DNA from: Catajapyx aquilonaris | Lineage: Eukaryota | Assembly: GCA_000934665.2 (NCBI GenBank) | Contig: JYFJ02003584.1 | Location: 1-40,046 of the forward strand | DNA length: 40,046 bases | Direction of reading: 5' to 3' | Shown: in pieces, positions 1,958 to 39,557 of the stretch | Position numbering within the stretch: position 1 is the stretch's first letter | Layout: each line of letters starts with the position of its first letter | Notes under the pieces: model-generated | Seen by the model: only the letters and a program-made list of their open reading frames with translations | What the model was told of the DNA's origin: nothing | The model's database searches: none | Program-made: the position numbers and the translations under genes

Positions 1958-3590
1958 ATGAAACCGCAGTGTTTGCTACCCTCCATGCTTCTAGCGGCTT
2001 CTCTCATTACGCTTATGTTGATCGCAATTACGGATCCATTGAACTATTCAATTAGACATGGGTCCTCTTATTTAAACACTTCTCCTCCAATACGTGCCAA
2101 GTATAAGAGTATACTCTTCTGGAACAAGTACTGGGACGAGCCTTTCTTCTACTTTGGCGAGGGTCACAAACCTTTCATGACCCACAACTGCTCTCAGACC
2201 AACTGCTTCACATCGGCTGACAGGTAAGAAAAGTATATTTGCAGGCCCTGTATTGAATGTGATGGGCCCCGTTTACATAATGTGTAACGGGAATACCCCA
2301 GCTTGACGATGGTCGTCAAATAGGATTTCCTTTACATAATGAGCGATTTGATCAGAGATTTGAAATAATCGCAGGAGCCTCCTTCCTCTGGAGGAATGGG
2401 ATGCGATTGTCTTTCATGGTGTCCAGTTGAATGGTAAGGACATGCCGAGCAGACGATCATGGAGTCAGCGGTATGTCTTCTACTTGATGGAATCTCCCAG
2501 TATGACCTGGACGGATCTGAAACTGTACAACAACTTCTTCAACTGGACAGTCACTTACAGGCAAGTGTGTTTATTTCCCAAGTAGCACGAATCGCCCTGG
2601 AATATCCCATGGATATCCAGATATCCACTGAATCGCCACTGGATATTTGGATATCCATGGGATATCCCAGGGTGATTCGTGCTACTTGGGTTGGGACAAT
2701 ATAAGGACGACACTGACCTGATTTTTTTCCAGGTCTGACTCGGATATCCACGATCCTATGAACACAATTTACCCAAAGTCGTCCAGTAGCGTCCAGAGTG
2801 TGACACGTTGGCTTCCAGAAACCCCGTACGATGGTCCAAACATGGCTTCTGGAAAGGACAGGATGGTCGCCATATTCGTGTCACACTGCAGCACCCACAG
2901 CAAACGAGAACTGTTGGTGGCCGAGCTGTCTAGGTACATCGAGGTGCATGCGTACGGAAGGTGCGGGAACATGTCGTGTCCACGAACGAACGAGGGACAC
3001 TGCAGGGAAATGCTGGACAAACGCTACAAGTTCTACCTGGCCTTTGAGAACTCCCTGTGCGATGAATACGTCACCGAGAAGTTCTTCCACACCATGAATC
3101 TCAACGTAAGCTTCGGACTGTCACTCACATTAGAGCGGAAACCCGGACTCGAATAGAGTGAAATCAGTTTCGCTCACTGAAAAGTATCCCGTTCATTTGC
3201 ACACTTTTCAAGTAATTTTCCATGCAATTAATCTTTGCGGAATAACATTCGTTCATTTTCAAGACTCACAGGTGTGTTTTATTCCAGGTGATACCGGTGG
3301 TGTACGGCGGTGCTGACTACTCCAAAGTGGCACCTCCTCGGTCATACATCGACGCCAGGTCATTTCCGACGGTCAAACACCTGGCCGAGTACCTGATTCG
3401 ACTGGACAAAAATGATAGCATGTACAACCAGTACTTCTGGTGGAAGAAGTACTACAAAGTGGGCACGCCAGTCCATGCCGACACGTTCTGTCGCCTGTGC
3501 GACATGCTCCACACAAATGTACAGAGCAGAGTTTACGAAGACATGCACGACTGGTGGATTCGGAAAGGGAACTGCATTGTTCATAAGTGA
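1958..3590 (+). CDS. Alpha-1,3-fucosyltransferase (GT10, FucTC-like), copy 1; exons 1958-2223, 2375-2560, 2733-3105, 3288-3590
   Basis: N-terminal TM anchor, ILFWN, FNWTVTYRSDSDI, FVSHC, and the GT10 motif YKFYLAFENSLCDEYVTEKF plus VIPVVYGG. Exon phases are consistent; intron 2 is GC-AG. Confidence 0.93.
2577..2690. mobile_element. 114-bp palindromic MITE in intron 2 of copy 1
   Basis: Termini CCCAAGTAGCACGAATC...GATTCGTGCTACTTGGG, flanked by TT. Absent from the homologous 57-nt intron of copy 2. Confidence 0.85.
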
Positions 3591-4246
3591 TTAACTAGTG
3601 AAGAATCAGGCACATAAGTTATTTTAGGGATTTTTCACAATTAAAATGTTGCGTAATTAGCATTTTGAAAATACTAGTTTTACAATTATTTCTGACTCCC
3701 ACCGTTGCATATGTGCAACACGCTGTAGGCTACTACACGCCTACTACACATCATGTAAAAATATTTTTCTGGAGATGGGCACCTGAAGTAACTTGGTTAA
3801 TACTGGATTTCATAATTCTGTAGAAATTAACCTGGGAATCACAGAGGGTTACTGTAGTACGATATGTTATCACGTTACATGTCCACTGAGCATCTCGTAC
3901 AAAGGTCAAAATGATTAAGTTTCTAGTAGATACTATAGGAAATGAATTATTTTGGTAACAACATGACGGCAGATGAAAATGACAGATATTTTTTTGTTGT
4001 AGCCATTTGGCCCACTTTTGCAACGAATACACAAGTTGTCTGCTGTCATACACACAAAAATGTTTTGACACACTAAATGGGCATAATCATCAAATTTTTT
4101 TTTGCAATAAAAAACTTTATATTCGCATACTAAGAAGTACTGTCAATATGAACAGGTGTTGCCTTGCCGTCCCCTCTACTTCCTGCACCTTTATTACATG
4201 ATATATGCTCCGCAAGTGTGCAGTGCGCCTAATAAATCAAGTAGAG

Positions 4247-5705
4247 ATGAAACCGCAGCGTTTGCTACTCTCCGTGCTTCTAGTGGCTTCTCTCATTATT
4301 GCGCTTGTGTTCATTGTAATTATGGATCGATTGAACTATCCAATTAGATCAAGAAGTACGGCGGTTAACAAGATGAGGAATAAGAGTATACTCTTATGGA
4401 ACAAGTTCTTCAGCCAGCCTTTCTTCAACTTTGGTGAGGGCCACGAACCTTTCCTGACGCACAGCTGCGCTCAGGCCAACTGCTTCACATCGGCTGACAG
4501 GTAAGAAACGTTTATAGTTGCAGGCCCTGTTACTTATTGGTGTTGCAATAATCGCAGGAGCCTCCTTCCCCTGGAGGAATGGGACGCGATTGTCTTTCAC
4601 GGTGTCCAGTTGAATGGTACGGACATGCCAAGCAGACGATCATGGAGTCAGCGGTATGTCTTCTACTTGCTGGAATCTCCCAGTATGACCTGGTCGGATC
4701 TGAAACTGTACAACAACTTCTTCAATTGGACAGTCACTTACAGGCAATAAGTGTGTTTGGGACCATATATAAGGACGACACTGACCTGATTTTTCTCCAG
4801 GTCTGACTCGGATATCCACCAACCTTACAACAGAATTTACCCAAGGTCGTCCAGTAGCGATCCTTCTACCTGGAGCGTGACACGTTGGCTTCCAGAAACC
4901 CTGTACGATGGTCCAAACATTGCTTCCGGAAAGGACAGGATGGCCGCCATATTCGTGTCACACTGCCGCACCCACAGCAAACGAGAACTGTTGGTGGATG
5001 AGCTGTCTAGGTACATCGAGGTGCATGCGTACGGAAGGTGCGGGAACATGTCGTGTCCACGAACGAATGAGAAACACTGCAGGGAAATGCTGGACAAACG
5101 CTACAAGTTCTACCTAGCCTTTGAGAACTCCCTGTGCGATGAATACGTCACCGAGAAGTTCTTCCACACCATGAATCTCAACGTAAGCTTCGAATTTACA
5201 CTCACATTAGAGCGAAAACCCGCACTCGAATAGAGTGAAATCAGTTTCGCTCACTGAAAAGTATCCCGTTCATTTGCACACTTCTTTCGAGTAATATATT
5301 CCATGCAATTAATCTTTGCGGAATGACATTCACTTATCTTTTTCCCCAGTTGTCCATTCATTTTCAAGAGTACACAGGTGTGTGTCTTTCCAGGTGATAC
5401 CGGTGGTGTACGGCGGTGCTGACTACTCCAAAGTGGCACCTCCTCGGTCATACATCGACGCCAGGTCATTTCCGACGGTCAAACACCTGGCCGAGTACCT
5501 GATTCGACTGGGCAAAAATGATAGCATGTACAACCAGTACTTCTGGTGGAAAAAGCATTACAAAGTTGGCGCGCCAGTCGGTACCGACCGGTTCTGTCGT
5601 CTGTGCGACATGCTCCACACAAATGTACAGAGCAGCGTTTACGAAGACATGCACGACTGGTGGATTCGGAAAGGGAACTGCATTGTTCATAACTATCATA
5701 AGTGA
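4247..5705 (+). CDS. Alpha-1,3-fucosyltransferase (GT10), copy 2; exons 4247-4500, 4558-4743, 4801-5182, 5394-5705
   Basis: Same motifs and intron positions as copy 1. The intron 2 donor is an unusually weak GCAATA. Confidence 0.88.
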
Positions 5706-14973: not shown

Positions 14974-15248
14974 CTTCTCTTTCTTTCTTGGGGGGATTCG
15001 CCCTGCTGCCTCAAAATTTCAGAAAGAAAAAATCGAACGTGAATCGAACGTCGTCGAGAAGGAAAAATTTCCAAGATGGCGACCCGGCACAACGCCGCCC
15101 AAGATGCCAACAGAAAAATGTAATTATGATGGTCTGAATTTAAACGTAATTATAACTTAAAGTAGAATCCGCAACATAAATGAGCAACACTGTAATTATT
15201 ACACAGGTAAAAATTAAGTTGAAAAACAGACACAATGGCAACAGTGCG

Positions 15249-15326
15249 ATGACGTCACAACAACAGCGCGAATGACGTCACAACAGCTACAGAAGAATGA
15301 CGTCACAACAGTGCAATGACGTCACA
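15249..15326. promoter_or_regulatory. Four ATGACGTCACA (CRE-palindrome) repeats ~300 bp upstream of the SmE ATG
   Basis: TGACGTCA four times at ~20-25 bp spacing. Confidence 0.5.
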
Positions 15327-15589
15327 GATTCAAACAAATCCGCGCGAACATTTTTCAAACGACAATTTCAGAGCATTTGTCACCAAAATTAGTGCATTTT
15401 GCTGGCATTTTGAGTCGCCTTGATTAAAATAGTGTGTTCCAGAGACCTACCTGTATATGGTCAAGATTCCGGCTGCTGTGCCGCTGCTGTTGGTGTGAAA
15501 ATAAACCAAAAAAAGAGATTATAATTAGCTGCAAATTGTAAATTTATTATTAACGTACACAGCAGGCTCGTGATCGACTTGAGATTCAT

Positions 15590-17806
15590 TTACACCATCC
15601 TGGCTAGCCCATCCAGCATTGTCCTGAGCCGACCGAAGCTTTCCTGCTCGCCGGGGTCCAGCCTACAGATGCGGATAACAAAGGCAACGGGAGGCTCGCA
15701 GCTCCTCGCTAATGAAATCACAGCTTGCCGCAGCTCGCCTGTGATGGCACGCACCAAGTGGTCACAGATGCGTCTGAATAAGGCTGCTTCAGCCTCATGC
15801 TTACCGGCCGGACAAACCAGAAGAAGCACGACCTTCTTGATCAGCTGGAATAGTGCGGAGCAAACCAGCCGCAAGTACGTCAGCATCCGCCGCATCTTCC
15901 GGACGCTGCTTGCCATACAAAGATCCTCAGCAGACTCCCATCCGCGCCAGTTACTCTGCGTCACCTTCTCCGCACTGGTGTGGATCAGCGACTGGTACAC
16001 CTCCAGCTTGGCCTGGCATCTACGGAAGTCAATCCATACCGGGGTGACCGTCGTCGGCTTGTGCACGAGGCGACTCACAGAATCCTGCGGACAGATATAA
16101 AATTCAATAATTTCCAACCATAGCTCAACGTAGCTACACCCAGTGTTCAATAAGGGTGCGGCTAAATACAGCATGAATAAAACCCAGTGCGTCAGGACAT
16201 GTCGCCGGTACAAGATGTGTTTTGGTCCTTTGCGCCGCTGGCTACATCTTCGGCTGTGTTCGGACTGTGGACATGTCCGCTGTACCCTTCAGGACGCTGC
16301 AAGTATGCATCGTACTTGTGGACGAGCATCGTAAATGCATCCGGTCTCTTCATTGGGGTGTGGGCCAGGCTGTGGACGCTCATGTATAACCAGGAGTACG
16401 ACATGTACTACTTCTCGTCACGAACCGACGAGAACGTAGGAGTGTACGTGTACACAGCCACGTACCTCCTCGCATTATTGGGCTTACTGGTGCACGTTCC
16501 GCGACTGAAGCGAATCAGACGCATACTCGAGACCCTCCACGAGTTTGACGCAACATTCCCGTCGCTAGAAGTCAACCACAGCGTCAGGAAAGTGTCGCTG
16601 AAAATTGTCGCAATCAGTTTCATTGCCTCTGCTGCGTTGACAGGTGCCAATATTTACTTGGCCGTAACCAGGATGAAGCGCATACCGCACGCATCGGCTG
16701 GTCTCTTCCAGCTATTCACAGTGCGCAATTTGCTGGCAGCACAATTGCTGTTTTTTGCATCCGCAATTGGGCACAGGTTCGACCTAGTTGGCCTGCAGAT
16801 CAAAGCGACTTGCGCTGGGCTGCGGAAGGTTTTTGGGCAGCCCGACGCCAAGCCCCATGTGGGTCAGCCTGACCTGTCCGCATCAGGCGCAGCATATCTG
16901 GAGCTGTGCGGTATGACCTCAGAGGTCAACAAAGTGTTTGGACTCACAGCGTGCATGACGTACTTGACCTTCCTGCTTGAAACGGTAATGTCGTCGTTCT
17001 CAACCATTGATTCATGGGGATCTATGAGCACCGCAGTTGCAGTAATCGCAATCACAGTTATCCTCTGCAACGTCGCATTTCTCATCTGGTACACCTGCGT
17101 AATTGCCAGCCACAGCGATAAGGTACGTACCATGCCATCAATTTGAGAGTGTGAAGAAGCGCAATTAATAATTTTGCTGTTAGGCCACCAGCTTCTTCGA
17201 CGACTTGATACAAATCCGCAAGCTGAACCTGACCCCAGAATTTCAAGAGCAGGTCAGAGGTCGCCGCCAATTAATTTGCCCACTATGACGACACATGTTT
17301 GCTTCCCGCAGGTGCAGACGTTGGTACAGAAAATGAGCGGACCTCCCGTTCAGTTTGCGGCCGCTGATTTCTTCCCTCTGAACCGCAGGCTACTCGCATC
17401 GGTAAGCGTTACGTTCAATGACATGTTCATAGATTAATACTACAATTGATGTTTCAGATCGCAGCCATTGCTACGACCTATTTGGTCATACTCGTCCAGT
17501 TCAGCTCCGCAGAGCAACAGGAACTCCGACCAGGCTTGAATAATTCTAGATAAACACAATTAGTGAGATTAAACTGCGCGACAACAGGACAAGACCATTA
17601 CAACGATTAAAGCTGTCAGCCTGCAAAATATTGGAAAATTGATTATTATGCGCACATTAATCTACTTTCTTTTTCCTCGTACTATAAGTGCTTCAACTCA
17701 CCAAGTCGTCATCTATCGTCTGGAAGATCCTTTCCAACACTCTAACGTGGCATCCGACATCCCGCATGTGGCCCTCCCATTTGGAGTGGACATCACTGCT
17801 CATCAT
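15590..17806 (-). CDS. Orphan protein, family member 2 (~199 aa); exons 17806-17702 and 16084-15590; its intron hosts the GR gene
   Basis: MMSSDVHSKWEGHMRDVG...IDDDL|gtgagt...ccgcag|DSVSRLVHKP. Both exon lengths are multiples of 3; AATAAA on the - strand at ~15543. Confidence 0.78.
16199..17553 (+). CDS. Gustatory receptor (7tm_7 family); exons 16199-17122, 17184-17252, 17312-17401, 17458-17553
   Basis: Multi-TM long first exon, VNKVFG, FAAADFFPLNRRLL, TYLVILVQF signature, and three C-terminal phase-0 introns typical of arthropod GRs. Confidence 0.93.
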
Positions 17807-17982
17807 GTTGACCTTCTATCGTGTGTACTGAGCCAACAATTGTAACTCATTGCAACCATAGCAACAATGCAATTATAGCACGGAGGACTCTGCATATTTA
17901 CAACTTTATTGTCTTTCAACGATGACATCCAGTTTGTTTTTGTTTGGACAATTTCTTTGGTTTAGTACTGGATGGCTTCGTC

Positions 17983-18727
17983 TCAGGGCGAACTGAAGCA
18001 TCCGTCGGGATCTCCTTCGCATCCGAGCTTCAGAAAGAAGTTGGTTATCCCTTCAAACGTGGCCACATTTCTGCTGAGTTCCGCTTCCTTCTCGGGATCC
18101 AGCTTCACGGTGGTCGACACGAAGCTCCAGACCCGTGCGAGTATCTTTGCAAGTCCGCCCAGCCCCTGGATAATCTTGGTTTCGAACCGCTGCACCAACT
18201 CATCGCATGCGCACGACAGGGCAGGCACTTCCTTCACATTCCTCTGCTGAAGCATGTTCAGCAAAGCCATCAGCCTCTTCCCGGTGTTATCGAAGCAGTT
18301 GCAAATGTCCGTCACCATCTGGAAGATCCCGTTCAGCCGCTCCACTTCGGATAACAAAAACCCATCGAATTCAGGCTCCTTCAACATTGCCATATTGTCT
18401 CCACTCCCGGCAACGTCCTCTGCAGACATGTGCACCACATCAAGCGCACTCCGCTGCTCCTTCATCTTCTCCTGGGCCGCACGGAACGCCACCAACTCCT
18501 GCGCTTGGTATCCAATCTTCGGCACGACCTTATTACTCAACGTCCCGTTAATCAACTCCTGCAATAATTATACCTAATTAATAATTGCCTAATTAATCCA
18601 CACACTAATTATTTACCAGCACATTATCCAGCTCCTTGTAACCACCTTTGACCCACACCATATACGCATCAACCCTACGCATATGTATCTCCCAATCGGA
18701 CTGTATCTTGCTCCGTGCACTCGCCAT
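17983..18727 (-). CDS. Orphan protein, family member 3 (~228 aa); exons 18727-18617, 18558-17983
   Basis: MASARSKIQSDWEIHMRRV...LDNVL|ELINGTL; 58-nt phase-0 GT-AG intron; AATAAA on the - strand at ~17905. Confidence 0.8.
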
Positions 18728-18859: not shown

Positions 18860-19585
18860 CGGCCGCCATCTTGCTGCTCGTAAGTGTTGCCAACAGTGGC
18901 GGCCGCCATCTTGCTGCTCTCAATTGTTGCCAACAGCGGCGGCCGCCATCTTGCTGCACTCTAAGAAATGTCCGGGTTAAATGTATTTATCCCGGAAAAA
19001 AGATCACTTTTGACATGGTTATTTAACCCGGACATTTCCTAGTCATGGTTATTTAACCCGGACATTTGTTAGAAAGAGTGTATACATTCTAATGTCCTGG
19101 TTAAATAACCATGACTAAGAAATGTCCAGGTTAAATAACCATGACTAAGAAATGTCCGGGTTAAATAACCATGACTAAGAAATGTCCAGGTTAAATAACC
19201 ATGACTAAGAAATGTCCAGGTTAAATAACCATGACTAAGAAATGTCCGGGTTAAACAACCATGACTAAGAAATGTCCGGGTTAAACAACCATGACTAAGA
19301 AACGTCCAGGTTAAATAATCATGACTAAAAATGTCCGGGTTAAATAACCATGACTAAGAAATGTCCGGGTTAAATAACCATGACAAAAGTGACCCGGACA
19401 TTTGTTAGAGTGTATACACTCTAATGTCCGGGTTAAATAACCATGACAAAAGTGATCTTTTTTCCGGGATAAATACATTTAACCCGGACATTTCTTAGAG
19501 TGTGTCCGCAATTGTTGCCAACAGTGACGGCCGCCATCTTGCTGCTCGTAATTGTTGCCAACAGTGGCGGCCGCCATGTTGGTGC
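18860..19585. repeat. ~40-bp tandem repeat (GGCCGCCATCTTGCTGCTC...TGTTGCCAACAG), ~5 units, split by an inserted element
   Basis: Units at 18860-18956 resume at ~19505-19585. Confidence 0.8.
18957..19502. mobile_element. Non-autonomous CAC-terminal (CMC/EnSpm-like) element with an internal 30-bp minisatellite, copy 1
   Basis: TIRs CACTCTAAGAAATGTCCGGG...CCCGGACATTTCTTAGAGTG; 2-bp TSD TG; about 10 copies of AAGAAATGTCC(A/G)GGTTAAATAACCATGACT. Confidence 0.9.
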
Positions 19586-19783
19586 TCGTGCCAAGTATTT
19601 CCTTCGTGAGCGGCGTGCAAAAAGGTCGATAGGCCGGTCGTCGTCGGCGGCGTGCCTCTCATTTTTTCCTACTTGTCATCTTTTTTTTTTGCAGTGCGCA
19701 CTGTACAGTACTTGGCATCTCAAGTACGGGGGTGCTGTACGGTGTGGCTTCAGATGCAGTGAAGGAAAAAGTGCCCGAGGAGG

Positions 19784-24641: not shown

Positions 24642-26690
24642 TCAGTTGTTGTAATTGTCCCAAATAAGTTCTTTGATTGGAAATAACAGTTTCTGATGTG
24701 TGTCATTGTCAGCCTTGATGTATCCCCACATGTCCATGGCCTTCCAGCAATTATCCTGGATTGACTTCACCTCCTGGAAGGTCAGGTTGTTTTTCCAGTG
24801 GAAAGCGTTTGAACTGGAGTCTCTGAAGGTGGAGTGGAGGTCACCATGATTGACCTTTGTGTGGGTGTCCAGGAAGTCTGCCACTGACGGATGCATGTAC
24901 AGATCCAAAAACTGGAGCAGGTCGTGCATGGCTTTGTGCGGATCCAAGGAGAGGTCTTCGTATCTGACCACCCTGAAGGAAGAAAGAGGGGGTCAATCAC
25001 TCAGGATGGTAGTCGTGCGATCAGACTGACCTGAACCGATCTTTATATTTGAGCTGCATCGACTTGGCAGCTTCGTAGTCGCTGACAAGGTCATCGCACA
25101 CATGACGAGGGTCGTGGCAGTCAGAATCGAGGAAACACAGCACGTAATGTTTCCTGGATTGCATTGTTCCTCTGGGATCTCTCACCAGGTACACTATCCT
25201 CAGGTTCAAACTATAATGATATGTAATTGTGTTAATGCTGCTCTCCAGGACAATTTTGTTGCGACTTACTCTGGGTCATCCAGCAGTGTCTTGGCATGGG
25301 AAAGAAGAAGTCCAACAACCTTCATTGATTGGAATGGAAACAAGCTGCAGAACTGGTTCGTGTAATCAGGATTGGAGCACAATCTAATGTACCTGTTGCA
25401 TTGTTTCCACAGACGATGGTTGTGCTTAGACGACTGCATTAGATCGTGTACGTAATTCATACCGCTGCCTAAAATTTCAATTTCAATGCCATTCTTAAAT
25501 CAAACACTTCCCTTCAACAATTCATCTCCAAATTTAATATGAGTTTCAAAATAAAATAAAAACTCACATGAACTCACCAGTGTAGTTGCAGATGAGCATT
25601 TGCTTGATTCGTCTGAGAGCCTCTTGAGACTTGGGTCCATCCCTGATGACCTGCATCCCACCCAGACTGGCCAAAGGCTCGTAGTAGTAGAAATTGGCAG
25701 GATGACTGTCCAAAATGTCTCCAAGAAAAGTAGATCCGGATCGCCAGTAGGTGAAAATCACACTTCTGATTGGCTGACCTCCTCTGCTCATCATGAGGTC
25801 ATCCAGTGTTCTGAATGAAGTGTACACGTGTCAGATAATAAATACACAACAAAGTAAATTATATATATCATATACCTTCCTGGAGAAAAAGCATACCCTT
25901 CCAGTTCCTGTCCATTTAGGCGAATCTGGCTCGTTAAAATGTCATTTAACTTTTCGTCAGGGGATGTATTTAATGCTTCCCAATCTTCAGTCTGCAAAAC
26001 GATCATCAGTTGAAGGAATGTGGAAATTAAATGTATTGTATAGCCTCGTTTTAATATTATTATTATAATTTGAGGTGGATAGTGAGAGCAGGTGCCATGT
26101 AATGTTTAATATGGAGGTATATTATTATCGTTCGAATTATTGTAAGTTTCCTAGATTCAGGTTGTCGATTGCTTCTTTGAATTATTTAAAAAAAAAAACA
26201 TTGCGTGCAGTTAATTAGTGATAGATATTTCCAATATCTGAATGAAAATTTGAAACCTCGTTTTCAAGGCTGGTCTTCTTTTCTCGCGGATAATAATATT
26301 CAAAGTCCTCGATGGTCCACTCCTCTTCTTTCAGAGTTGGCGTCATCGTCGACACGGGTAAATAGTTGCAGGCCAAGATCACCACAATCACCAAAGTCAC
26401 CACTAATGAGAGGCAAGCGAAGTACTTCCAGATCACCGAGTTGACACTGCCAAACATATCAGTGACATTGATATGATTATGCCAAGAAAGATTAACCATT
26501 GGAATTGAACCAATATTAATGCATCCTTGATCTTCACCATGACAGAGTTGCATTTTACTGAATGCGTTTGTCCAAAATATTATTAAGGATAATAATAAAT
26601 GGATCATTATATAGTGACTTACTTGATGATTTTGGTGCTGGACTGACACATTTTGGACTGGATCCTTCCGATTATGAGACGTGGAGACAT
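24642..26690 (-). CDS. Golgi carbohydrate sulfotransferase (CHST1/4/5-like), type A copy A1, ~7 coding exons; start uncertain
   Basis: TM anchor, 5'-PSB loop FTYWRSGSTFLG, YYEPL, 3'-PB LVRDPRGTMQSR, VRYEDL, CWKAMDMWGY; splice phases consistent. Confidence 0.88.
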
Positions 26691-27196
26691 CCTTCGTGCT
26701 CTGCATAATATGGAATATATTGTCAGAAATATTGTGCGAGCAATTCCAAGGCTGTATAGGTTATATGGAGCACTTGATCACTAACAACAGCTGGAATGCC
26801 AATTGCAGCAGTTGGTGAATTACACAACTGTAATTGGCTGTCTGGCGGAACTATAATAATAATAATAATCCGTCCCTGAAAATGATCAATGAAAACAGGT
26901 TTATCCGGCTGCAAAAACTGAATATACAAAAAAAAAGTTTCCAACAAATATTTCATTCCGATAATGTACAACACGAGATGAAGGTAAAGTGAATGCTTTT
27001 TCATAATCATTGCGGATGTCCTTCACCTTGATAGCGTGCTGGTGGTTTTGCAGCGTCAAAGTGCTAGTGGCTCCTTCCTTGCTCATCCCGAGGTGAAACC
27101 ATGCCAGATGTTTCATGTCCTCTCAATGATATGCCACGTTCCCTTCTCTTTTATAGCTTCCCAATCTCAGCAGGTTGCGTTCCTCAGTGGTCACTT

Positions 27197-30100
27197 CTAC
27201 TTGTCCCACTTCATTTCAGTGATTGGAGTGAATGATTTCTGATGACTAAGATTGTCAGCCTTGATGTATCCCCACATGTCCATGGCCTTCCAGCAAATAT
27301 CCTGGATAGACTGCACCTCCTGGAAGGTCAGGTCGTTTCTCCAGTGGAAAGCATTCGCCTTGGAGTCTCTGATGGTGGAGCGGAGGTCACCAGAGTTGAC
27401 CTTTGTGTGGGTGTCTAGGAAGTTGGTCACTGACTGATGCATATAGAGACCAAGGAACTGGAACAGGTACGATGTGACATTGTAAGGGTCCAAGGAGAGG
27501 TCTTCGTATCGAACCACCCTGTCAAAGAAGAAGAGTGACAGCATTTTTATCGCGTGGTTGACCTTGTGCGAACGGACTGACCTGAACCGATCTTTGTATT
27601 TAAGCTGCATCGACTTGGCAGCTTCGTAGTCGCTGACCAGGTCATCACAGACACGACGATGGTCGTTGCAGTCAGAATCGAGGAAACATAGAATGTAATG
27701 TTTTCTGGATTGCATTGTTCCTCTGGGATCTCTCACCAGGTACACTATCCTCAGGTTCAAACTATAATGATATGTAATTGTGTAAATGCTGCTCTCGAGG
27801 ACATTGCAACCGCATGTTGTGACTTACTCTGGGTCATCCAGCAGTGTCTTGGCATGGGAAAGAAGAAGTCCAACAACCTTCATTGATTGGAAGGGGAACA
27901 AGCTGCAGAACTGGTTCGTGTAATCAGGATTGGAGCACAATCTAATGTACCTGTCGCATTGTTTCCACAGACGATGGTTGTGCTTAGACGACTGTATTAG
28001 GTCGTGTACGTAATTCATACCGCTGCCTAAAATTTCAATATGTTATGCCATTCTTAAATCAAACACTTCCCTTCAACAATTCATCTCCAAATTTAATACG
28101 AGTTTCAAAAAAAAATCCACACAAACTCACCAGTGTAGTTACATATGAGCATTTGCTTGATTCCTCTGAGAGTCTCTTGAGATTTGGGTCCATCCCTGAT
28201 GACCTGCATCCCACCCAGACTGGCCAAAGGCTCGTAGTAGTAGAAACTGGCAGGGTGGCTGTCCAAAATGTCTCCAAGAAAAGTAGATCCGGATCGCCAG
28301 TAGGTGAAAATCACACTTCTGATTGGCTGACCTCCTCTGCTCATCATGAGGTCATCCAGTGTTCTGAATGAAGTGGACACGTGTCAGATGGCATGTTAGT
28401 TTCTCTAGGTACAAACGACAATAATTACACAATAGAGTAAATTAAAATATATCATATACGAGTACCTTCCTGGAGAAAAAGCATACCCTTCCAGTTCCTC
28501 TCCATTTAGGAGAATCTGGCTCGTTAAAATGTCATTTAACTTCTCGTCAGGTGATGTCTTTATTGCTTCCCAATCTTCAGTCTGCAAAACGATCATCAGT
28601 TGAAGGAATGTGGAAATTTAATGTATTGTCTAGCCTCATTTTAATATAATTATAAGAATTTGAGGTGGATAGTGAGAGCAGACTGCGCCTTTCGAATTCT
28701 TGTAAGTTTCCCATTCAGGTTGTTGATTGCCTCTCCGAATTGTATAGGGATATAGTAAGACCAAACGACCGAAAACAACAATGAAATTTTTCCGATTCTT
28801 TGCCGAAGCATAACTCAAAAACCCTTACAGATAAAGGTTTCACAGTTTGAACACGACACCAGCTCGGCGTGACGGACGGTCCTTTTATTTCCTGTCAGGT
28901 TATAGCGAATTCCTTCGTACAACGCCAGAAAAAAAATCTTATATCGGCAACGATGAAACTCTATAATATTATAGAGACCATTCTGTTGGAGGACCCTTCG
29001 TCCTGGAGGAGCAGCAGGACTGCATGGAATTCCTCTAACATATACACTCTAAGAAATGTCCGGGTTGAATGTATTTATCCCGAAAAAAAAGATCACTTTT
29101 GTCATGGTTATTTAACCCGGACATTTGTTAGAGTGCATACGTGCATACACTGTAAGAAATATCCGGGTTAAATAACCATGACTAAGAAAATGTCCGGGTT
29201 AAATAACCATGACTAAGAAAATGTCCGGGTTAAATAACCATGACTAAGAAATGTCCAGGTTAAATAACCATGACAAAAGTGATCTTTTTTCCGGGATAAA
29301 TACATTTAACCCGGACATTTCTTAGAGTGTATTATAGTAGAGAAATTTCCAATGGGGGACGCACCAGCGCCGAGACCAGTACCATTGTAACTACTGCAAC
29401 GCCAGATGGGAAGGGCCAGAAATAACTCATCGCTATCTACCTCTTGTTGTCCCGAGACAGGAGAGCGTCAAGTTCGACGCCCTGTTCCTACAGAAGGACG
29501 AGGAACTTGCCTGCGTGTCGTGCGCACACAATGGGTACACCACCAGGTCTATCAGTATCAAGCACGTTCATAATATTGCATAATATTATACCTGGTACGG
29601 TATGACGACAAGGGGGTGAAAATCGAGACAGAAGTTGAAGGCCAGATAGGATTGTCGTGGATTCCCAGCAATTCTACTGCAATGCTGCAATTATTATTCA
29701 CAACGGCAAAACATCAAATGGGGGTCATTACACCTCCATTATCAAAGAAGCAGATCAATGGCTACACTTGAATGACTCGTTGGTAGAGCCAGAAGTACAC
29801 TCTTAAAAACCTGGCTTACATATATTCACATATTAGTTAAAATTTTACACATGCCCTTCGTAATGTAGCATTACGATATCCTTTAATAATAATCTAGCTA
29901 GTGAAGCTAGGTCTTACTCATCCCTGTTTTGTTTAATTAATTTCTATCCGCCATAGAGGTCTTACTACCCTTTTTTTTTACAGAATGGAAGGTTTTTGTG
30001 ATACTTATTTAAAAAAAAAAACATTGCGTGTAGTTAATTATAGCGATGGATATTTCCAAGTGACGCGAAAATGACTGAATAAAAACTTGAAACCTCGTTA

Positions 30101-30547
30101 TCAAGGCTGGTCTTCTTTTCTCGCGGATAATAATATTCAAAGTCCTCGACGGTCCACATCCACACCTCTTCTTTCAGAGTTGGCGTCATCGTCGACACGG
30201 GTAAATAGTTGCAGGCCAAGATCACCACAATCACCAAAGTCACCACTAATAAGAGGCAAGCGAAGTACTTCCAAATCACCGAGTTGACACTGCCAAACAT
30301 ATCAGTGACATTAATATGATTATGCCAAGAAAGATTAACCATTGGAATTGAACCAATATTAAAATGCATAATTATTTCCCATCCTTGATCTTCACCCTGA
30401 TCGAGTTGCATTTTACTGAATGCGTTTGTCCAAAATATTATTAAGGATAATAATAAATGGATCATTATTAGTGACTTACTTGATGATTTTGGTGCTGGAC
30501 TGACACATTTTGGACTGGATCCTTCCGATTATGAGACGTGGAGACAT
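27197..30547 (-). CDS. Carbohydrate sulfotransferase A2 (A-type 5' part, B-type last intron and exon); one intron carries a 1.26-kb insertion
   Basis: Same motifs as A1; last exon ends TPITEMKWDK, as in the B copies. Confidence 0.83.
28742..30004 (+). mobile_element. Intronic insertion carrying a decayed ubiquitin-specific protease (peptidase C19)-like coding region
   Basis: Absent from the homologous GAATTATTT site in A1 and A3. Remnants: EEQQDCMEFL (29006-29035), CNYC...CVSC, LVRYDDKGVKI, IHNGKTSNGGHYTSIIKEADQWLHLNDSLV (~29696-29785); stops and frameshifts present. Confidence 0.75.
29045..29329. mobile_element. CMC/EnSpm-like non-autonomous element, copy 2
   Basis: Same TIRs and 30-bp unit as 18957-19502; 2-bp TSD TA. 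Confidence 0.9.
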
Positions 30548-30974
30548 CCTTCGTGCTCTGCATAATATGGAATATATTGTCAGAAATATTGTGCGAGCAA
30601 TATTCCAAGGCTGTATGGAGCACTTGATCACTAACAAAAGCTGGAATGCCAATTGCAGCAGTTGGTGAATTACACAACTGTAATTGGCTGTCTGGCGGAA
30701 CTATAATAATAATAATCCGTCGCTGAAAATGATCAATATAAAACTGGTTTATCCGGCTGCAAAAACTGAATATACAAAAAAAAGAGTTTCGAACAAATAT
30801 TTCATTCCGATAATGTACAACACGTCATGAGATGAAGGTAAAGTGAATGCTTTTTTCATAATCATTGCGGCTGTCCTTCACCTTGATAGAGTGCTGGTGT
30901 TACATAAGGATCAAGAGAAAATTGTCTCAGCCTATAGTTTATGGGGACATATACTAATTATCATTATTAAACAC

Positions 30975-31475
30975 TGATAACCTTCCTGGAGAAAAAGGTC
31001 CTGTCCATTCAGGCGAATCTGGCTCATTAAAACATCAATTAACTTTTCGTCAGGGAACATCTTCATTGCTTCAGCAGGCATGTAATCTTTAGCCTGTAAA
31101 ACGATCATCAGTTGAATGAGAATCGAAATTAAAATAATGTATTTCACAATATTATGAGGTGCACAGTAAAAGCAGGAGTGCTCTTATAGAAGTAGGGTAT
31201 AATAATCAGCCTTTATTGCAAGTGCCCTATGGATTGCTTCTTTGAATTATTATTAAAGATCATAATAAATTGATGATTAGTGACTCACTGAATGATTTTG
31301 GCTCTGCTGGACTGACACAACTTTTTTTGGCTGGATCATTCCTCCTCGGTTACGTGGAGACATGTGGAATAATGTGCGAGTAACACAAGTCTGCGCAGGT
31401 AAATGAGCACCTGTTCATTAGCAAAATCTGGAATGCAATAATATTGTTTCATATTGAGCTTGCAGTTGGTTATAA
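30975..31475 (-). pseudogene. Degenerate 5' remnant of a type A sulfotransferase
   Basis: FPDEKLIDVLMSQIRLNGQ exon homolog plus decayed first-exon sequence; no catalytic exons follow. Confidence 0.75.
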
Positions 31476-32079
31476 TTACTCATATATATACACTGCACGA
31501 GCGGTGCTATTGTGGTCCATTTATGATAAGCATCATTTTGGTTGGGACTGACAGAGCCTCTCTAATGATGATGTGGCTTCCAGTAAGTTCCAATTTATAA
31601 AAATGGTGAAAAAAATATTGGAGTGTAACAAGTAAGCTATTAGACTTTATTAGGAACAATCCTCCGTTAAAATAATAATGCTGCATAAGTGATCAGTCTA
31701 ACTTAAGTTACTGCACTTTAAATTATTCTGAAACACATGTAGGCCTACGCTTAAGAACACGAAAAGCTATACACAGAAGAAAAGGAAATTCTAACAGCCC
31801 AGATGTGAAACAATTACTTATAGGTTAAGTCCGAACTAATTATTGAAAGATGACATGCAATTTACGATGACACCAGAGCTAAATATTTACTTACATAAGA
31901 TTGACCCAAAATAATTCAATTTCAGCTGTAAAAAAACCAAAGTAACCCTTCCACTTCTTTATATGCAAGTACGTGCTTCTTTATAGCGAATCCGCTAAGA
32001 AAAGCACAATTTCAACACAAAAAAATCAGAGCTGCTGCGCTTCTCATTCACAGCAGGTTGTGTTCCTCAGTGGTCATTT

Positions 32080-34085
32080 CTACTTGTCCCACTTCATGTC
32101 AGTGATTGGAGTGAATGATATCTGATGACTCAGATTGTCAGCCTTGATGTATCCCCACATGTCCATGGCCTTCCAGCAACTATCCTGGATAGACTGCACT
32201 TCCTGGAAGGTCAGGTCGTTTCTCCAGTGGAAAGCATTCGCCTTGGAGTCTCTGAAGGTGGAGTAAATGTCACCAGAGTTGACCTTTGTGTGGGTGTCCA
32301 GGAAGTCTGCCACCGACGGATGCATATAGAGACCAAGGAACTGGAACAGGTCCGATGTGACATTGTAAGGGTCCAGGCAGAGATCTTCGTATCGAACCAC
32401 CCTGTTAAAGAAGAAGAGTGACAGTTGGTATTTTCATCACGTGGTTGACCTCGTGCGATCGGACTGACCTGAACCGATCTGTGTATTGGAGAAGCAGAGA
32501 TTTGGCAGCTTCGTAGTCGCTGAGCAGATCATCGCAGACGCGACGATGGTCGTAGCAGTCTGGCTCTGACTGGCACCACCTTAAATGCCTCCTGGACTGC
32601 ATTGTTCCTCTGGGATCCCTCACAAGGTACACGACCCTCAGGTTCAATCTGGAATGTCGACATCATGCACAAGTTCTTGCTGTACCAACTCCATCCAACA
32701 ACTTACTCAGCGTCATCCAGCAGTGTCTTGGCATGAGAAAGACTGAGGCGAACTACCTTCATGGACAGGAAGGGGAAAAGTCTGCAGAACTTAGTCATAT
32801 CATCTGGACTTGTGCACATATCTATGTACTCCTCGCATTGTTTCCACAGACGATTGTTGCGCATTAAGAACTCCCAGCCTTTCTTAAGCTGATGTATTAT
32901 AGTCCCTGGAAAATGTACATAATGTACTTCAGTAGCGGTTGTAGATTTATTCGAGACTCTACATATTTTGTTGATAAATGGAGGTATAGGAGGATAAGAA
33001 AAATTATAAAACAAATGAGACATAATGTACCTGTGTGATTACAGAGAAGGCGTTGCTTCATCAGATGGACAGCCTCTTGAGACATTGGTCCATCATTCCT
33101 GATGACCTTCACGTCCACGAGTTCGACCAAAGGCTCGTAGTAATAGAAACTGGCTGGGTGGCTGTCCAAAATGTCTCCCAGAAAAGTGGAACCTGATCTC
33201 CAGTAGGTGAAAATCAAACTCTTGATCGGATGGCCACCCTCGCTCATCATCAGATCGTGCAGTGTCCTGAATGAAACACACCCTTTGTCGTAGGCTGACG
33301 TGTTTGCCAAATATAAAGCTCGGACACCCAATGTTCATATAATCATATAACGATAGACTCAGGAATTACCCAAGCAATTTGTTTTCATCATTATTAAATA
33401 ATTATTTGCTATTGGATAAGAGTGTAATGTATTTAATAACACAATATTAAATGGCCTTACGATCCAGGAGAATACACGTATCCCTCCAGTTCTTCTTCAT
33501 TCAAACGCTTCTGGGCTATTAAAATCTTATTTAAGTTATCGTCCAGAATTGGCCTGATGAATGAGCCAGCTGCCTGAAGATGACCTTGTTGATGATATTT
33601 AGAGAGGTCACTGGGCATTGGCTGAGGTGCTTGCAGAGTTGGCGCTACCATCGACATGGAGAAATGGTTCCAAGACATCTTCACCAAAATTGTCACTCCG
33701 ACGACTACCAGTAGGCAGACAAAGTTCCGTCTAATCTTCCAGTTGAGTCTGTCGAAGAAAATGGGCGGATATTATTAACCCAAATGCCATAACACTGCAT
33801 ATCAAGTTTCATCCACATTGCGAAACACCGTGGGGAGGGGAAAAAAATCGCGAAAATTTGGAAAAGGGCTGAAAATGAGGTCTTTTTTGGAGAATTATTT
33901 AGGTTAGTGTAAGTGGTCAACACCCACTAAACACATAAGTATATCAGTTGAAGGTTATTTACCTTCATGGCCTTCACCTCAGTGGCATAGTGCTGATATT
34001 TGCAATAGCGACAGGCTATTATCTGTTATCCCCGAAAAGCCTCTTTTGGTTCAACACTAACTGGAAAATTAGTGACTCACCGCAT
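32080..34085 (-). CDS. Carbohydrate sulfotransferase type B copy B1; 5-nt first coding exon (ATGCG, 34085-34081), next exon from 33748
   Basis: MR|LNWKIRRNFVCLLVVVGVTILV TM anchor; FTYWRSGSTFLG; MKVVRLSL; LVRDPRGTMQSRR; VRYEDL. Confidence 0.88.
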
Positions 34086-34795
34086 GATTTTGTCTCCGGG
34101 TATACTAATATGTTATGGGCTGAGCCCCAGGCTATACATACGAGGCATGCAACACGAGTGATCTGGTTGGAATATTGTGCAAACAATAATGCAAAGCTGC
34201 AGGTGGAGTGTGCCTGACCACCAACAAAGGGGGGTTATTATGTAACTGATCAACACCAGCTTTTATTTTGCAGAGAGTGGTTGGCTCACCTGGCAAATGG
34301 AAACACTGTTTGAGCAAAAGGGAAATACTATTGGAACTATAATTCGTGGTTTCATACCTTTCGGCCAGTCCTTCCTTGTTATGCTCTTTGGTTATACTGG
34401 AAGGCTCACCTCTCCACATCTGGATTGAAAATCTCAAAAGGTTCTTGTTTTGATCAGTAGCTGCTCCTTTGGTGTAGTCAGAAAGAGAGACGGGCACAGA
34501 ACACAACGATGGAAGAATGTGGAAATTATTCTCAAAGGTGGTGAAACATTCCGGAAGTGTTTTCCTTCCTCCTCATCTCACCTTATCATATACCGGCTTC
34601 CGTTAGCATGCTGTTGATAGCTAGCCATAAACTCAACCAAGCCGTGATAAGATGGAGCCAGCAACGGAATCCATTTCTCTGGAGGCCATTAGTGGGTTTA
34701 TCCCGCCCCACTGACATTTTTATTCCGATCTAATGTTGAAGTCTCGCCCTATGCCCGTAAATGTTTTATCTGAGGTCACCAATGTCCCTATCTAT

Positions 34796-36045
34796 CAGTA
34801 GGGGAACCTGGGCCACAATGAGACACAAAAATTGTTTGCAATTAAATAAAAGACTAGAAATGAGAGTAGGCACAATTTATATTTCCTGGATATACAGCAC
34901 ATATTGATATGTATGACATAATAAAGAACGCATCAATTCTTCACTCCAAATAAATGTTAATAAATCTAACCTGAGAATCGGGAATATGTCTCATTGTGTC
35001 CTACATGTAGAGGACACAATGAGACAACCACCAGGACACAATGGCACATTGGGATTTAAGTGACGTGGTAGCTAATTTATTATGGATGGCCCCTGGTACC
35101 TTTCCCCCTTAGCACACATTTAGATGTGACAGACCAAACTCAAAGGTCAGGTATGCCTGTTGCCTCTTTGTTTTGCCAAAACAAGTTGGTTTAGGCAATA
35201 CGAGTTTTATAGCCTCTTTGTTAATCACATCTAAATCTGGAATGTCTGGTGTGACGAACTTACCTGCCATTTTCCTACTTATCCGCAAATAGGAAACATC
35301 ATAACTTTCTTCACTTTTCTTCAAAACTTTACCTACATAATAGACAGGAGCTTTGTCTCCAAACTCCACCAAAACATAATCTCCCTCGTCAGCATCTCTC
35401 TCCAACTCTGGAAATTCATTTGATTGTAGTTCCTGCAAATGTCTTTCTGCTACATCGTCCAGGTCCGAACCACTGTCTGAAGGATGGGTGTGCTTCAATG
35501 CCAATTCTTCATCGGAGGAAGATTCTTCGGAACTGTCCCGTTGACTTATGCTCAATTTCTTCCTAGCTGTAGGCCTACTCTGCCTACGTGCCAATATTGG
35601 TCCTGCAGGTCTATTCTTATTTTTTATCTGTTCAAGTGTCCTCTTCTCTGGGGTGTCGGTGGCTACCATACTTTTCCCCTCTCGTCTACCTTTGCGGATG
35701 TTCTTCCTTGGTCCTGCTTTCGGATAACCACGAAAATCTTCAGGACTCTGGAAGGTCTGCACAGCGTCATTTTGAGCAGGTGAAGGAAAAGGCAGTGACT
35801 CACTTGATGTCAGGGGGTTCGGTCTGTCGGTTACGTAACTACACATGAAGTCTTGATCTGTGAAGATGAACTTGTCAAATGGGAAGATTCCAGACTTTTT
35901 GAATCCACTGTTGATGTTCGCAGGACTTATACCCCTTTCATGAGCGATGCCGACGCATGCTGCAACATTGTAAATACTGAAGGTTTGGCCAGGATTGGCC
36001 ATCGTCCAGGAATCCTCGGCAGCATTGTAGAAAGACTGAAAAGAT
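34796..36045 (-). mobile_element. 5'-truncated pogo/Tigger-type DNA transposon (C-terminal transposase ORF 36002-35109 plus 3' end)
   Basis: FQSFYNAAEDSWTMANPG...NINSGFKKSGIFPF...YPKAGPRK...TDTPEK. Terminus CAGTAGGGGAACCTGGG and repeated ACAATGAGACA subterminal motifs; DDE core is missing. Confidence 0.85.
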
Positions 36046-36072
36046 GATATGTGTACAGACCAACAGACATAC

Positions 36073-37680
36073 TGTATTTGAGCTGTATCGACTTGGCAGC
36101 TTCATAGTCGCTGACCAGGTCATCGCACACATGACGAGGGTCGTTGCAGTCAGAATCGAGGAAACATAGAATGTAATGTTTTCTGGATTGCATTGTTCCT
36201 CTGGGATCTCTCACCAGGTACACTATCCTCAGGTTCAAACTATAATGATATGTAATTGTGTAAATGCTGCTCTCCAGGACATTGCAACCGCATGTTGTGA
36301 CTTACTCTGGGTCATCCAGCAGTGTCTTGGCATGGGAAAGAAGAAGTCCAACAACCTTCATTGATTGGAATGGAAACAAGCTGCAGAACTGGTTCGTGTA
36401 ATCAGGATTGGAGCACAATCTAATGTACCTGTCGCATTGTTTCCACAGACGATGGTTCTGCTTAGACGACTGTATTAGATCGTGTACGTAATTCATACCG
36501 CTGCCTAAAAATACAATGTTATCCCATTCTTAAATCAAACACTTCCCTTCAAAAATTCCTCTCCAAATTTAATATGAGTTTCAAAAAAAAAAACTCACAT
36601 AAACTCACCAGTGTAGTTGCAGATGAGCATTTGCTTGATTCCTCTGAGAGTCTCTTGAGATTTCGGTCCATCCCTGATGACCTGCATCCCACCCAGACTG
36701 GCCAAAGGCTCGTAGTAGTAGAAACTGGCAGGGTGGCTGTCCAAAATGTCTCCCAGAAAAGTAGATCCGGATTGCCAGTAGGTGAAAATCACACTTCTGA
36801 TTGGCTGACCTCTTCTGCTCATCATGAGGTCATCCAGTGTTCTGAATGAAGTGTACACGTGTCAGATAATAAATACACAACAAAGTAAATTATATATATC
36901 ATATACCTTCCTGGAGAAAAAGCATACCCTTCCAGTTCCTGTCCATTTAGGCGAATCTGGCTCGTTAAAATGTCATTTAACTTTTCGTCAGGGGATGTCT
37001 TTATTGCTTCCCAATCTTCAGTCTGCAAAACGATCATCAGTTGAAGGAATGTGGAAATTAAATGTAGCTATTGTCTAGCCTCGTTTTAATATAATTATAA
37101 GAATTTGAGGTGCCTTTCGAATGCTTGTAAGTTTCCGATTCAGGTTGTTGATTGCTTCCCTGAATTATTTAAAAAAAATTGCGTGTAGTTAATTAGTGAT
37201 GGATATTTTCAAATGATGCGAAAATAACTGGTTAAAACCTTGAAACCTCGTTTTCAAGGCTCGTTTTCTCGTGGATAATAATATTCAAAGTCCTCGACGG
37301 TCCACACCTCTTCTTTCAGAGCTGGCGGAATCGTCGACACGGGTAAATAGTTGCAGGCCAAGATCACCACAATCACCAACGTCACCACTAATAAGAGGCA
37401 AGCGAAGTACTTCCAGATCACCGAGTTGACACTGCCAAACATATCAGTGACATTAATATGATTATGCCAAGAAAGATTAACCATTGGAATTGAACCAATA
37501 TTAATGCATCCTTGATCTTCACCATGATAGAGTTGCATTTTACTGAATGCGTTTGTCCAAAATATTATTAAAGATAATAATAAATGGATCATTATACAGT
37601 ATAGTGACTTACTTGATGATTTTGGTGCTGGACTGACACATTTTGGACTGGATCCTTCCGATTATGAGACGTGGAGACAT
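36073..37680 (-). pseudogene. Carbohydrate sulfotransferase A3 pseudogene
   Basis: 5-nt deletion near 37262 gives TGA; PSB motif is YWQSGS (R>Q); truncated at QLKY where the transposon remnant begins. Confidence 0.88.
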
Positions 37681-38069
37681 CCTTCGTGCTCTGCATAATA
37701 TGGAATATATTGTCAGAAATATTGTGCGAGCAATATTCCAAGGCTGTATGGAGCACTTGATCACTAACAAAAGCTGGAATGCCAATTGCAGCAGTTGGTG
37801 AATTGCAAAACTGTAATTGGCTGTCTGGCGGAACTATTATTATAATAATAATCCGTCACTGAAAATGATCAATGAAAACAGGTTTATCCGGCTGCAAAAA
37901 CTGAATATACAAAAAAAAAGTTTCGAACAAATATTTCATTCCGATAATGTACAACACGAGATGAAGGTAAAGTGAATGCTTTTTCTATAATCATTGCGGA
38001 TGTCCTTCACCTTGATAGAGTGCTGGTGGTTTCACAGCGTCAAAGTGCTATTTGTCCTAAACATTTTTA

Positions 38070-39557
38070 CTACATGTCCCACTTCATTTCAGTGATTGGA
38101 GTGAATGATATCTGATGACTAAGATTGTCAGCCTTGATGTATCCCCACATGTCCATGGCCTTCCAGCAAATATCCTGGATAGACTGCACCTCCTGGAAGG
38201 TCAGGTCGTTTCTCCAGTGGAAAGCATTCGCCTTGGAGTCTCTGATGGTGGAGCGGAGGTCACCAGAGTTGACCTTTGTGTGGGTGTCCAGGAAGTCTGC
38301 CACCGACGGATGCATATAGAGACCAAGGAACTGGAACAGGTCCGATGTGACATTGTAAGGGTCCAGGCAGAGATCTTCGTATCGAACCACCCTGTCAAAG
38401 AAGAAGAGTGACAGTAGGGATTTTTATCACGTGGTTGACCTCGTGCGATCGGACTGACCTGAACCGATCTGTGTATTGGAGAAGCAGAGTTTTGGCAGCT
38501 TCGTAGTCGCTGAGCAGATCATCGCAGACACGACGATGGTCGTAGCAGTCTGGCTCTGACTGGCACCACCTTAAATGCCTTCTGGACTGCATTGTTCCTC
38601 TGGGATCCCTCACAAGGTACACGACCCTCAGGTTCAATCTGGAATGTCGACATCATGCACAAGTTCTTGCTGTACCAACTCCATCCAACAACTTACTCAG
38701 CGTCATCCAGCAGTGTCTTGGCATGAGAAAGACTGATCCGAACTACCTTCATGGACAGGAAGGGAAAAAGTCTGCAGAACTTGGTCATATCATCTGGACT
38801 TGTGCACATATCTATGTACTCCTCGCATTGTGTCCATAGACGATGGTTGCGCATTAAGAAATCCCAGCCTTTCCTAAGCTGATGTATTCTAGTGCCTGAA
38901 AAATGTACACAGTATAATTATACTTCAGCAGTGTTGTCGATTTATTCGAGACTCTATACGTATTTGGTTGATAAATGGAGCTATAAGAGAGGACAAGAAA
39001 AATTATTATAAAACAAAATGAGACATAATAAATTGATGTACCTGTGTGATTACAGAGAAGGCGTTGCTTCATCAGATGGACAGCCTCTTGAGACATTGGT
39101 CCATTCCTGATGATCTTCACGTGGTCCACGAATTCGACCGTGAGTTCGACCAAAGGCTCGTAGTAATAGAAACTGGCTGGGTGGCTGTTCAAAATGTCTC
39201 CCAGAAATGTGGAACCTGATCTCCAGTAGGTGAAAATCAAACTCTTGATCGGATGGCCACCCTCGCTCATCATCAGATCGTGCAGTGTCCTGAATGAAAC
39301 ACACCATTTGTCGTATAGGCTGACGTGTTTGCGAAATATAAAAAATGCCAAACTCGGACACCATTCATTTATAATCGATACTCTTATGCATCTCAGTAAT
39401 TACCCAAGCAATATTTTTGATCATTATTATCAGATTAAATGGCCTTACGATCCAGGAGAATACACGTATCCATCCAGTTCTTCTTCATTCAAACGCTTCT
39501 GGGCTATTAAAATCTTATCTAAGTTATCGTCCAGAATTGGCCTTATGAATGAGCCAG
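38070..39557 (-). pseudogene. Carbohydrate sulfotransferase B2; catalytic exons open, but the stem exon is broken at ~39557 (5' part lost or outside the window)
   Basis: Near-identical to B1 up to ATGAATGAGCCAG, then unrelated sequence and a LINE. Confidence 0.6.

Follow-up and report, generated by a model that had tools for sequence, protein, structure and literature searches.

In a 40,046-nt stretch of Catajapyx aquilonaris DNA (contig JYFJ02003584.1; the window analyzed here), a complete gustatory receptor (GR) gene of four exons was found on the plus strand, inside the predicted intron of a small minus-strand gene, M2. The two genes probably form an ordinary opposite-strand nested pair, with the GR lying in the enlarged single intron of M2. 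A sequence-only reading of the same DNA had placed a four-exon GR at 16199-17553 (+) within a 1617-nt M2 intron at 16085-17701; all of these coordinates proved correct and the gene models were confirmed. Splicing of the M2 intron and expression of both genes are what we infer from the features described below.

The Gustatory Receptor Gene

The GR gene occupies positions 16199-17553 of the plus strand. Its coding sequence (CDS) has 1179 nt and encodes 392 amino acids plus a stop codon, in four exons:

16199-17122, plus strand: GR exon 1, 924 nt, 308 amino acids, with predicted transmembrane segments TM1-TM6; ends before GTACGT
17184-17252, plus strand: GR exon 2, 69 nt, both borders in phase 0; the annotated frame has the highest codon score of the six frames
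17312-17401, plus strand: GR exon 3, 90 nt, both borders in phase 0; the annotated frame has the highest codon score of the six frames
17458-17553, plus strand: GR exon 4, 96 nt, with TM7 and the motif TYLVILVQF; stop codon TAA at 17551-17553

The start codon at 16199 is the first ATG of its open reading frame downstream of a stop. The three introns measure 61, 59 and 56 nt, and all three have GT..AG borders and phase 0.

The predicted protein was compared with known families. Exon 1 matched the Pfam family 7tm_7 (PF08395) with 54.9 bits, above the cut-off of 26.6 (E = 1.2e-14), over profile positions 30-292 of 370, and exon 4 gave a weak match to positions 353-369 of the same 370, which at 15.8 bits is by itself under the cut-off. 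Among the Atlas clusters nearest to exon 1, 24 of 30 were arthropod 7tm_7 clusters (score 0.95, recognition 2756). A 19-residue Kyte-Doolittle scan, which is a crude method, showed six hydrophobic stretches in exon 1 and seven separate ones in the whole protein (about residues 44-62, 79-103, 131-157, 167-191, 246-264, 270-306 and 356-380). For GRs, the available text of PMC9998090 describes three ancestral phase-0 introns and a TM7 motif, TYhhhhhQF; residues 368-376 of the spliced protein, TYLVILVQF, fit the motif as defined there. The canonical GR structure given in the available text of PMC13388675 has a second exon of 69-72 bp and a third exon of 90 bp. The exon sizes of 924, 69, 90 and 96 nt, together with the three phase-0 introns, thus correspond to the canonical structure as published in these portions of the two papers (PMC13388675, PMC9998090). 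In gene structure, TYhhhhhQF motif and 7tm_7 match, the gene resembles the four-exon GRs of the insect "bitter GR supergroup" as they are presented there (PMC13388675, PMC9998090), its placement in that supergroup being one by gene structure only (PMC13388675).

When the spliced protein was used as a tblastn query, no second GR-like stretch was found in the 40-kb window, the best match outside the gene's own exons having an E-value of 2.1. It follows that the GR does not serve as one of several alternative first exons in a larger GR locus. Drosophila Gr28b and Gr39a are such alternatively spliced loci, in which several long first exons share short 3' exons. The present gene likewise has a long exon followed by three short ones, but it differs from those loci in that the window holds only one GR-like long exon and in that the sequence upstream of it is taken up, on the opposite strand, by M2 exon 2.

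Further searches gave no relatives and no fold for the GR. Its sequence had no match among PDB chains at E-values up to 10; a single-sequence AlphaFold model of exon 1 had a pLDDT of 43.1, too poor for a fold search; and a word-indexed protein search with exon 1 yielded 4199 candidates and no relatives. Judged by its sequence, the gene is complete, intact, single in the window and a true member of the 7tm_7 family.

The Putative Host Gene and Its Tandem Paralogue

The host gene M2 is made up of two coding pieces on the minus strand (17806-17702 and 16084-15590); joined, they form an open frame of 600 nt that encodes 199 amino acids. Two other small genes on the same strand, M3 and M1, were compared with it:

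17806-17702, minus strand: M2 exon 1, 35 codons, with the ATG at 17806 and the donor GTGAGT
17701-16085, minus strand: predicted M2 intron, 1617 nt, GTGAGT...TCCGCAG, phase 0, containing the entire GR
16084-15590, minus strand: M2 exon 2, 164 codons plus stop, preceded by the acceptor ...TCCGCAG
18727-17983, minus strand: M3, with exon 1 at 18727-18617, an intron of 58 nt at 18616-18559 and exon 2 at 18558-17983; 228 amino acids, no Pfam family
11968-11095, minus strand: M1, with exons at 11968-11960, 11900-11757 and 11694-11095 and introns of 59 and 62 nt; 250 amino acids, no Pfam family

The relationship between M2 and M3 was seen in both exons. In exon 2, BLASTP aligned the two proteins with an E-value of 5e-8 and 35 identical residues out of 152 (23%). 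For exon 1, the M3 peptide was slid across the six frames of the window, and its best place other than M3 itself was 17702-17806 on the minus strand, with a score of 46; the next, unrelated place scored 38. This score was reached by one of 5000 shuffles in one test and by none of 5000 in another, which puts the arrangement beyond chance. Free of gaps, the exon 1 alignment extends in both genes up to the codon that immediately precedes the donor, and the similarity here depends on 10 identities across 32 residues. The 58-nt phase-0 intron of M3 lies at the same aligned position as the 1617-nt intron of M2. At the other end of the protein, M2 is without the final 16 residues of M3. On this comparison, M3 is a true paralogue of M2 that shares its intron position; the two are tandem duplicates, M2 having diverged deeply from M3, its upstream neighbor.

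Coding potential was estimated with a codon log-odds model. The annotated frame ranked first of the six in 9 of the 10 exons tested, both M2 exons included, by a model whose training set was 2222 codons taken from 16 other open reading frame stretches of the window that were chosen by hand, several of them lacking Pfam support; the exception was the short GR exon 4. In the annotated frame, M2 exon 1 scored 0.399 and M2 exon 2 scored 0.239. The flanks of the M2 intron outside the GR (16085-16198 and 17554-17701) had negative scores in all six frames. A plus-strand open reading frame at 15525-16100 (191 amino acids) was considered as a gene and rejected: it only mirrors M2 exon 2 on the opposite strand, and its codon scores reach at most 0.14, versus 0.239. 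Homology to M3, reading phase, splice consensus and codon usage all suggest that the two M2 pieces belong together.

A different gene model was weighed, in which M2 is unspliced and consists of a single exon starting at an in-frame ATG at 16174, the segment 17702-17806 being a copy of the family's first exon that was left behind or is used on its own. In that case the GR would stand head-to-head with M2 instead of being nested in it, the 5' ends overlapping or abutting and the two ATGs lying 24 nt apart. The minus-strand frame is indeed open from 16084 up to 16288, with the ATG at 16174, and a gapped tblastn alignment of M3 continues into the stretch above 16084. However, this extension gains only about 3 bits and resembles the N-terminus of M3 no better than chance, its score being reached by 941 of 5000 shuffles for the 68-residue extension and by 3652 of 5000 for the 30 residues after the ATG. 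Its codon score is -0.384, like that of the intron flanks, whereas the M2 exons score between +0.24 and +0.40. Moreover, the extension ends in a good acceptor (...TCCGCAG) exactly where exon 2 of M3 starts in the alignment, and a well-matched exon at 17702-17806, initiated by ATG and terminated by GTGAGT, would be left unexplained. We regard the unspliced model as fairly unlikely.

As a further alternative, M2 could have fallen silent or be in decay, a duplicate of M3 with its halves split by the GR, in which case there would be no working host and no interplay between the genes. The missing final 16 residues, the very small promoter space and the finding of no relatives outside the window and no family would agree with this. 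On the other hand, the start codon, both splice sites and the 199-codon frame are intact despite an identity to M3 of 23%, both exons are coding-like in the right frame by codon usage, and an AATAAA follows 42 nt past the stop. A decaying M2 thus appears quite unlikely, and the frame still being open at such divergence would argue for continued selection.

The sequence-only reading had counted two putative paralogues with an intron of about 60 nt. For M3, the claim stands. In M1, a 62-nt phase-0 intron (11756-11695) precedes a last exon of 200 codons, and a further intron of 59 nt lies upstream; kinship was not detected, the E-value being 78 against M2 and 0.015 over 30 residues against M3, with an hhalign probability of 2.6%. 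At the exon level, the similarity scores of M1 were reached by 154 and by 2825 of 5000 shuffles. The likeness of M1 to the M2/M3 family would appear to be one of architecture only. As M1 is not demonstrably related, the contrast between the short and the long intron depends on one secure paralogue, M3.

The Protein Encoded by M2 and M3

M2 exon 2 matched no Pfam family at E-values up to 1. The word-indexed protein search returned 73 candidates for M2 exon 2 and 102 for M3 exon 2, and no relatives among them. A profile built from M3 and M2 had a sole match among 1,835,955,588 representatives (E = 1.1e-4); this was a protein of 1782 residues with patchy, sub-threshold Pfam matches and was rejected as not a credible relative. 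Metagenome contigs scanned with the M3 and M2 alignment gave 143 pattern matches, none of which was confirmed. In the Atlas, M3 exon 2 came closest to FH2-fragment clusters at 0.90 with a recognition of 1502, which is under the meaningful level. AlphaFold modeled M3 and M2 with four long helices at a pLDDT of 53.8, a low-confidence result too poor for a fold search. The M2 protein is thus probably all-helical, as far as such a model can suggest, and belongs to no recognizable family. Given that the clear GR was also without matches in the word-indexed search, the collection probably covers this lineage poorly, and "orphan" is therefore a weak label for M2 and M3.

Probable Nested Arrangement and Putative Transcript Signals

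The GR CDS (16199-17553) lies wholly within the M2 intron (16085-17701) on the opposite strand. Its span of 1355 nt fills 84% of the intron and leaves 262 nt in total, split into flanks of 114 and 148 nt. The ends of the untranslated regions were tentatively placed from TATA and ATTAAA signals, and the following transcript signals were noted:

16096-16102, plus strand: candidate GR TATA box, TATAAAA, 97 nt ahead of the GR start codon and 11 nt away from the M2 acceptor, with a putative promoter function
17568-17573 and 17606-17611, plus strand: ATTAAA variants of the poly(A) signal, between the GR stop and the M2 donor
15543-15548, minus strand: AATAAA, 42-47 nt past the M2 stop

The ATTAAA pair would end the GR transcript within the M2 intron, and the poly(A) signals as a whole stand at places that the nested model requires. 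Within the putative GR leader, an ATG at 16173 that is out of frame and an AATAAA at 16176 are a poor fit to a start site near the TATA box. On the minus strand, neither AATAAA nor ATTAAA was found within the M2 intron; about 0.8 would be expected by chance, so this absence says little.

M3 also has an AATAAA on the minus strand, 73 nt past its stop. From this poly(A) signal (17910-17905) to the M2 ATG at 17806 there are about 100 nt, which leaves little promoter room for M2. M3 and M2 might then be one transcription unit with alternative exons, for instance with the donor at 18616 of M3 exon 1 joined to the M2 acceptor at 16085, and the GR would lie in a larger, alternatively used intron. The two genes share a strand, only 176 nt separate the M3 stop from the M2 ATG, both introns are in phase 0 and a separate M2 promoter would have scant room. 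Against a common unit, M3 is equipped with a stop codon and an AATAAA signal of its own, and M2 opens with its own exon 1, which begins with ATG and is homologous to M3 exon 1. We hold a single unit to be very improbable.

For the nested pair, the following course of events is proposed. The GR is probably an independent transcription unit, running from the TATA box at 16096-16102 through the ATG at 16199 and the stop at 17553 to the ATTAAA signals at 17568 and 17606, and the entire GR transcript would fall inside the M2 intron. RNA polymerase transcribing M2 would read antisense across the full GR unit, and the spliceosome would then remove that stretch. The two genes may be used in different cells.

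The sequence-only reading had taken the layout to predict transcriptional interference or mutually exclusive expression. In Drosophila, according to the available text of PMC3814207, nested genes and the genes that include them are correlated in expression no differently from random gene pairs. Mutual exclusion is accordingly a possibility and not something that the layout predicts; by analogy, independence would be the default expectation for a nested pair, and interference would be a hypothesis.

In its strongest form, such interference would make the pair a minimal antisense switch, in which host expression could silence the GR in nearly all cells and firing of the GR could impair host splicing. 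The candidate TATA box sits on the complement of the M2 pyrimidine tract, and the GR poly(A) signals are about 90-135 nt from the M2 5' splice site. Since these signals are so near the M2 splice sites, each round of host transcription would sweep the whole GR unit, its promoter included. We consider a switch of this kind decidedly improbable. If it did exist, receptor choice would be tied to a young, lineage-specific gene.

Origin of the Gustatory Receptor Gene in the Intron

The surroundings of the GR were inspected for traces of its arrival. No A-tract was present 3' of the gene (17554-17701). None of 15 families of direct repeats brackets it, and the search for a target-site duplication or any other scar of insertion around it was negative. 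The GR keeps its three ancestral introns, and lacks both an A-tract and flanking direct repeats, indicating that it is not a retrocopy. On these features of the DNA, retroposition is excluded.

The sequence-only reading had preferred insertion at the DNA level over retroposition. Its negative half holds, as stated. Because the homologous intron of M3, the single secure paralogue, has 58 nt, insertion or duplication of DNA into a short ancestral intron would be the simplest and most parsimonious history. Most likely, the GR arrived or was duplicated as genomic DNA along with some 100-150 nt of flanking sequence of its own. Like retrogenes located in introns, the GR would be a foreign gene in a host intron; unlike them, it has kept three ancestral introns and has neither an A-tract nor flanking repeats.

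Comparison with Known Nested Genes

Nested genes are common among arthropods, and some Drosophila chemoreceptor genes are located in introns. Our literature search for GR genes nested in introns found nothing on point. The available text of Lee and Chang (2013; PMC3814207) provides figures for Drosophila melanogaster. There, nesting involves 9.5% of genes; of the nested ones, 71% lie on the strand opposite to their host, and 63% of these opposite-strand nested genes contain introns. Among young duplicated nested genes on the opposite strand, an RNA-based origin is given for 17% only, most being DNA-based (PMC3814207). The fly hosts are typically long, having 7 introns and 12,183 nt of intron sequence at the median, and introns that carry a nested gene have a median length of 4,826 nt (PMC3814207).

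As in the opposite-strand nested pairs of the fly described in that text (PMC3814207), a whole multi-exon gene lies antisense in one predicted host intron, with an origin that involved no RNA intermediate. The GR also belongs to a fast-evolving, narrowly expressed class, as the fly nested genes reported there do (PMC3814207). In contrast to the fly hosts in the same source, M2 has one intron, no known relatives other than one paralogue, and an intron in which just 262 nt lie outside the nested gene (PMC3814207). The GR/M2 pair is of the fly nested kind in all respects but host size, the host being unusually small.

The layout itself is thus not news. What is gained is that an intact GR of canonical type has been annotated, along with a family of two small helical proteins that database searches do not recognize. 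If relatives with an empty intron of about 60 nt exist, the locus would be a compact natural case in which transcriptional interference between genes read convergently could be measured and the DNA-level insertion dated. M2 would be split or missed by gene-prediction software that limits intron length in small genes or disallows overlap on the antisense strand. By its gene content the window is eukaryotic and apparently arthropod, the Atlas clusters closest to the GR being arthropod as well. Around the GR/M2 locus, Pfam recognized pieces of GT10 fucosyltransferase, BolA, C2H2 zinc-finger, DHHC plus SH3, and sulfotransferase.

Short spacer before M2 and signals in the putative GR leader

The space available for control sequences was considered for M2, the minus-strand two-exon gene that lies next to its paralogue M3 and whose predicted intron contains the four-exon gustatory receptor gene (GR), and for GR itself.

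17807-17982: gap between M3 stop and M2 ATG, 176 nt only
17910-17905, minus strand: AATAAA of M3
16173: ATG upstream of and out of frame with GR, starting a 54-codon open reading frame that overlaps the GR start
16176: AATAAA in the putative GR leader, 23 nt ahead of the GR ATG

Given the position of the M3 AATAAA, about 100 nt remains for the promoter and leader of M2. TATAAT and TCAGTA are both present within the gap, and M2 may be dependent on read-through from M3. For GR, the upstream ATG and the AATAAA suggest either a very short leader or reduced translation.

Repeats on both sides of the M2-M3 pair

15239-15326: tandem array of 25-nt period, four copies of ATGACGTCAC
15525-16100, plus strand: 191-aa open frame, antisense to M2 exon 2
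18860-19589: region of a 40-nt repeat containing AAGATGGCGGC (minus strand)
18860-18957: 2.5 copies of this repeat, immediately upstream of the M3 ATG
19510-19589: 2 further copies
19091-19384: array of 30 nt x 9.8, internal to an element of about 550 nt

The 25-nt array lies about 265-350 nt past the stop codon of M2, and the GR ATG follows it at a distance of about 870-960 nt. Each copy includes the CRE/ATF-type palindrome TGACGTCA; a regulatory role for this cluster is possible on either strand. The antisense open frame was rejected as a gene, being a shadow reading frame by codon score. Upstream of M3, AAGATGGCGGC is similar to a YY1/Pho-type site. The two blocks of the 40-nt repeat are separated by the element of about 550 nt, which has inverted ends and appears to be a MITE that landed within the array of 40-nt repeats.

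Other features of the window

2722-5705: GT10 fucosyltransferase duplicates
24642-39399: sulfotransferase units
35109-36101, minus strand: 330-aa open reading frame without family
208-708: long trinucleotide microsatellite, translating as I and Y runs

The fucosyltransferase is duplicated in tandem as two nearly identical exon pairs. The sulfotransferase gene is represented by at least four repeated units, one of which appears to be interrupted by the 330-aa frame.
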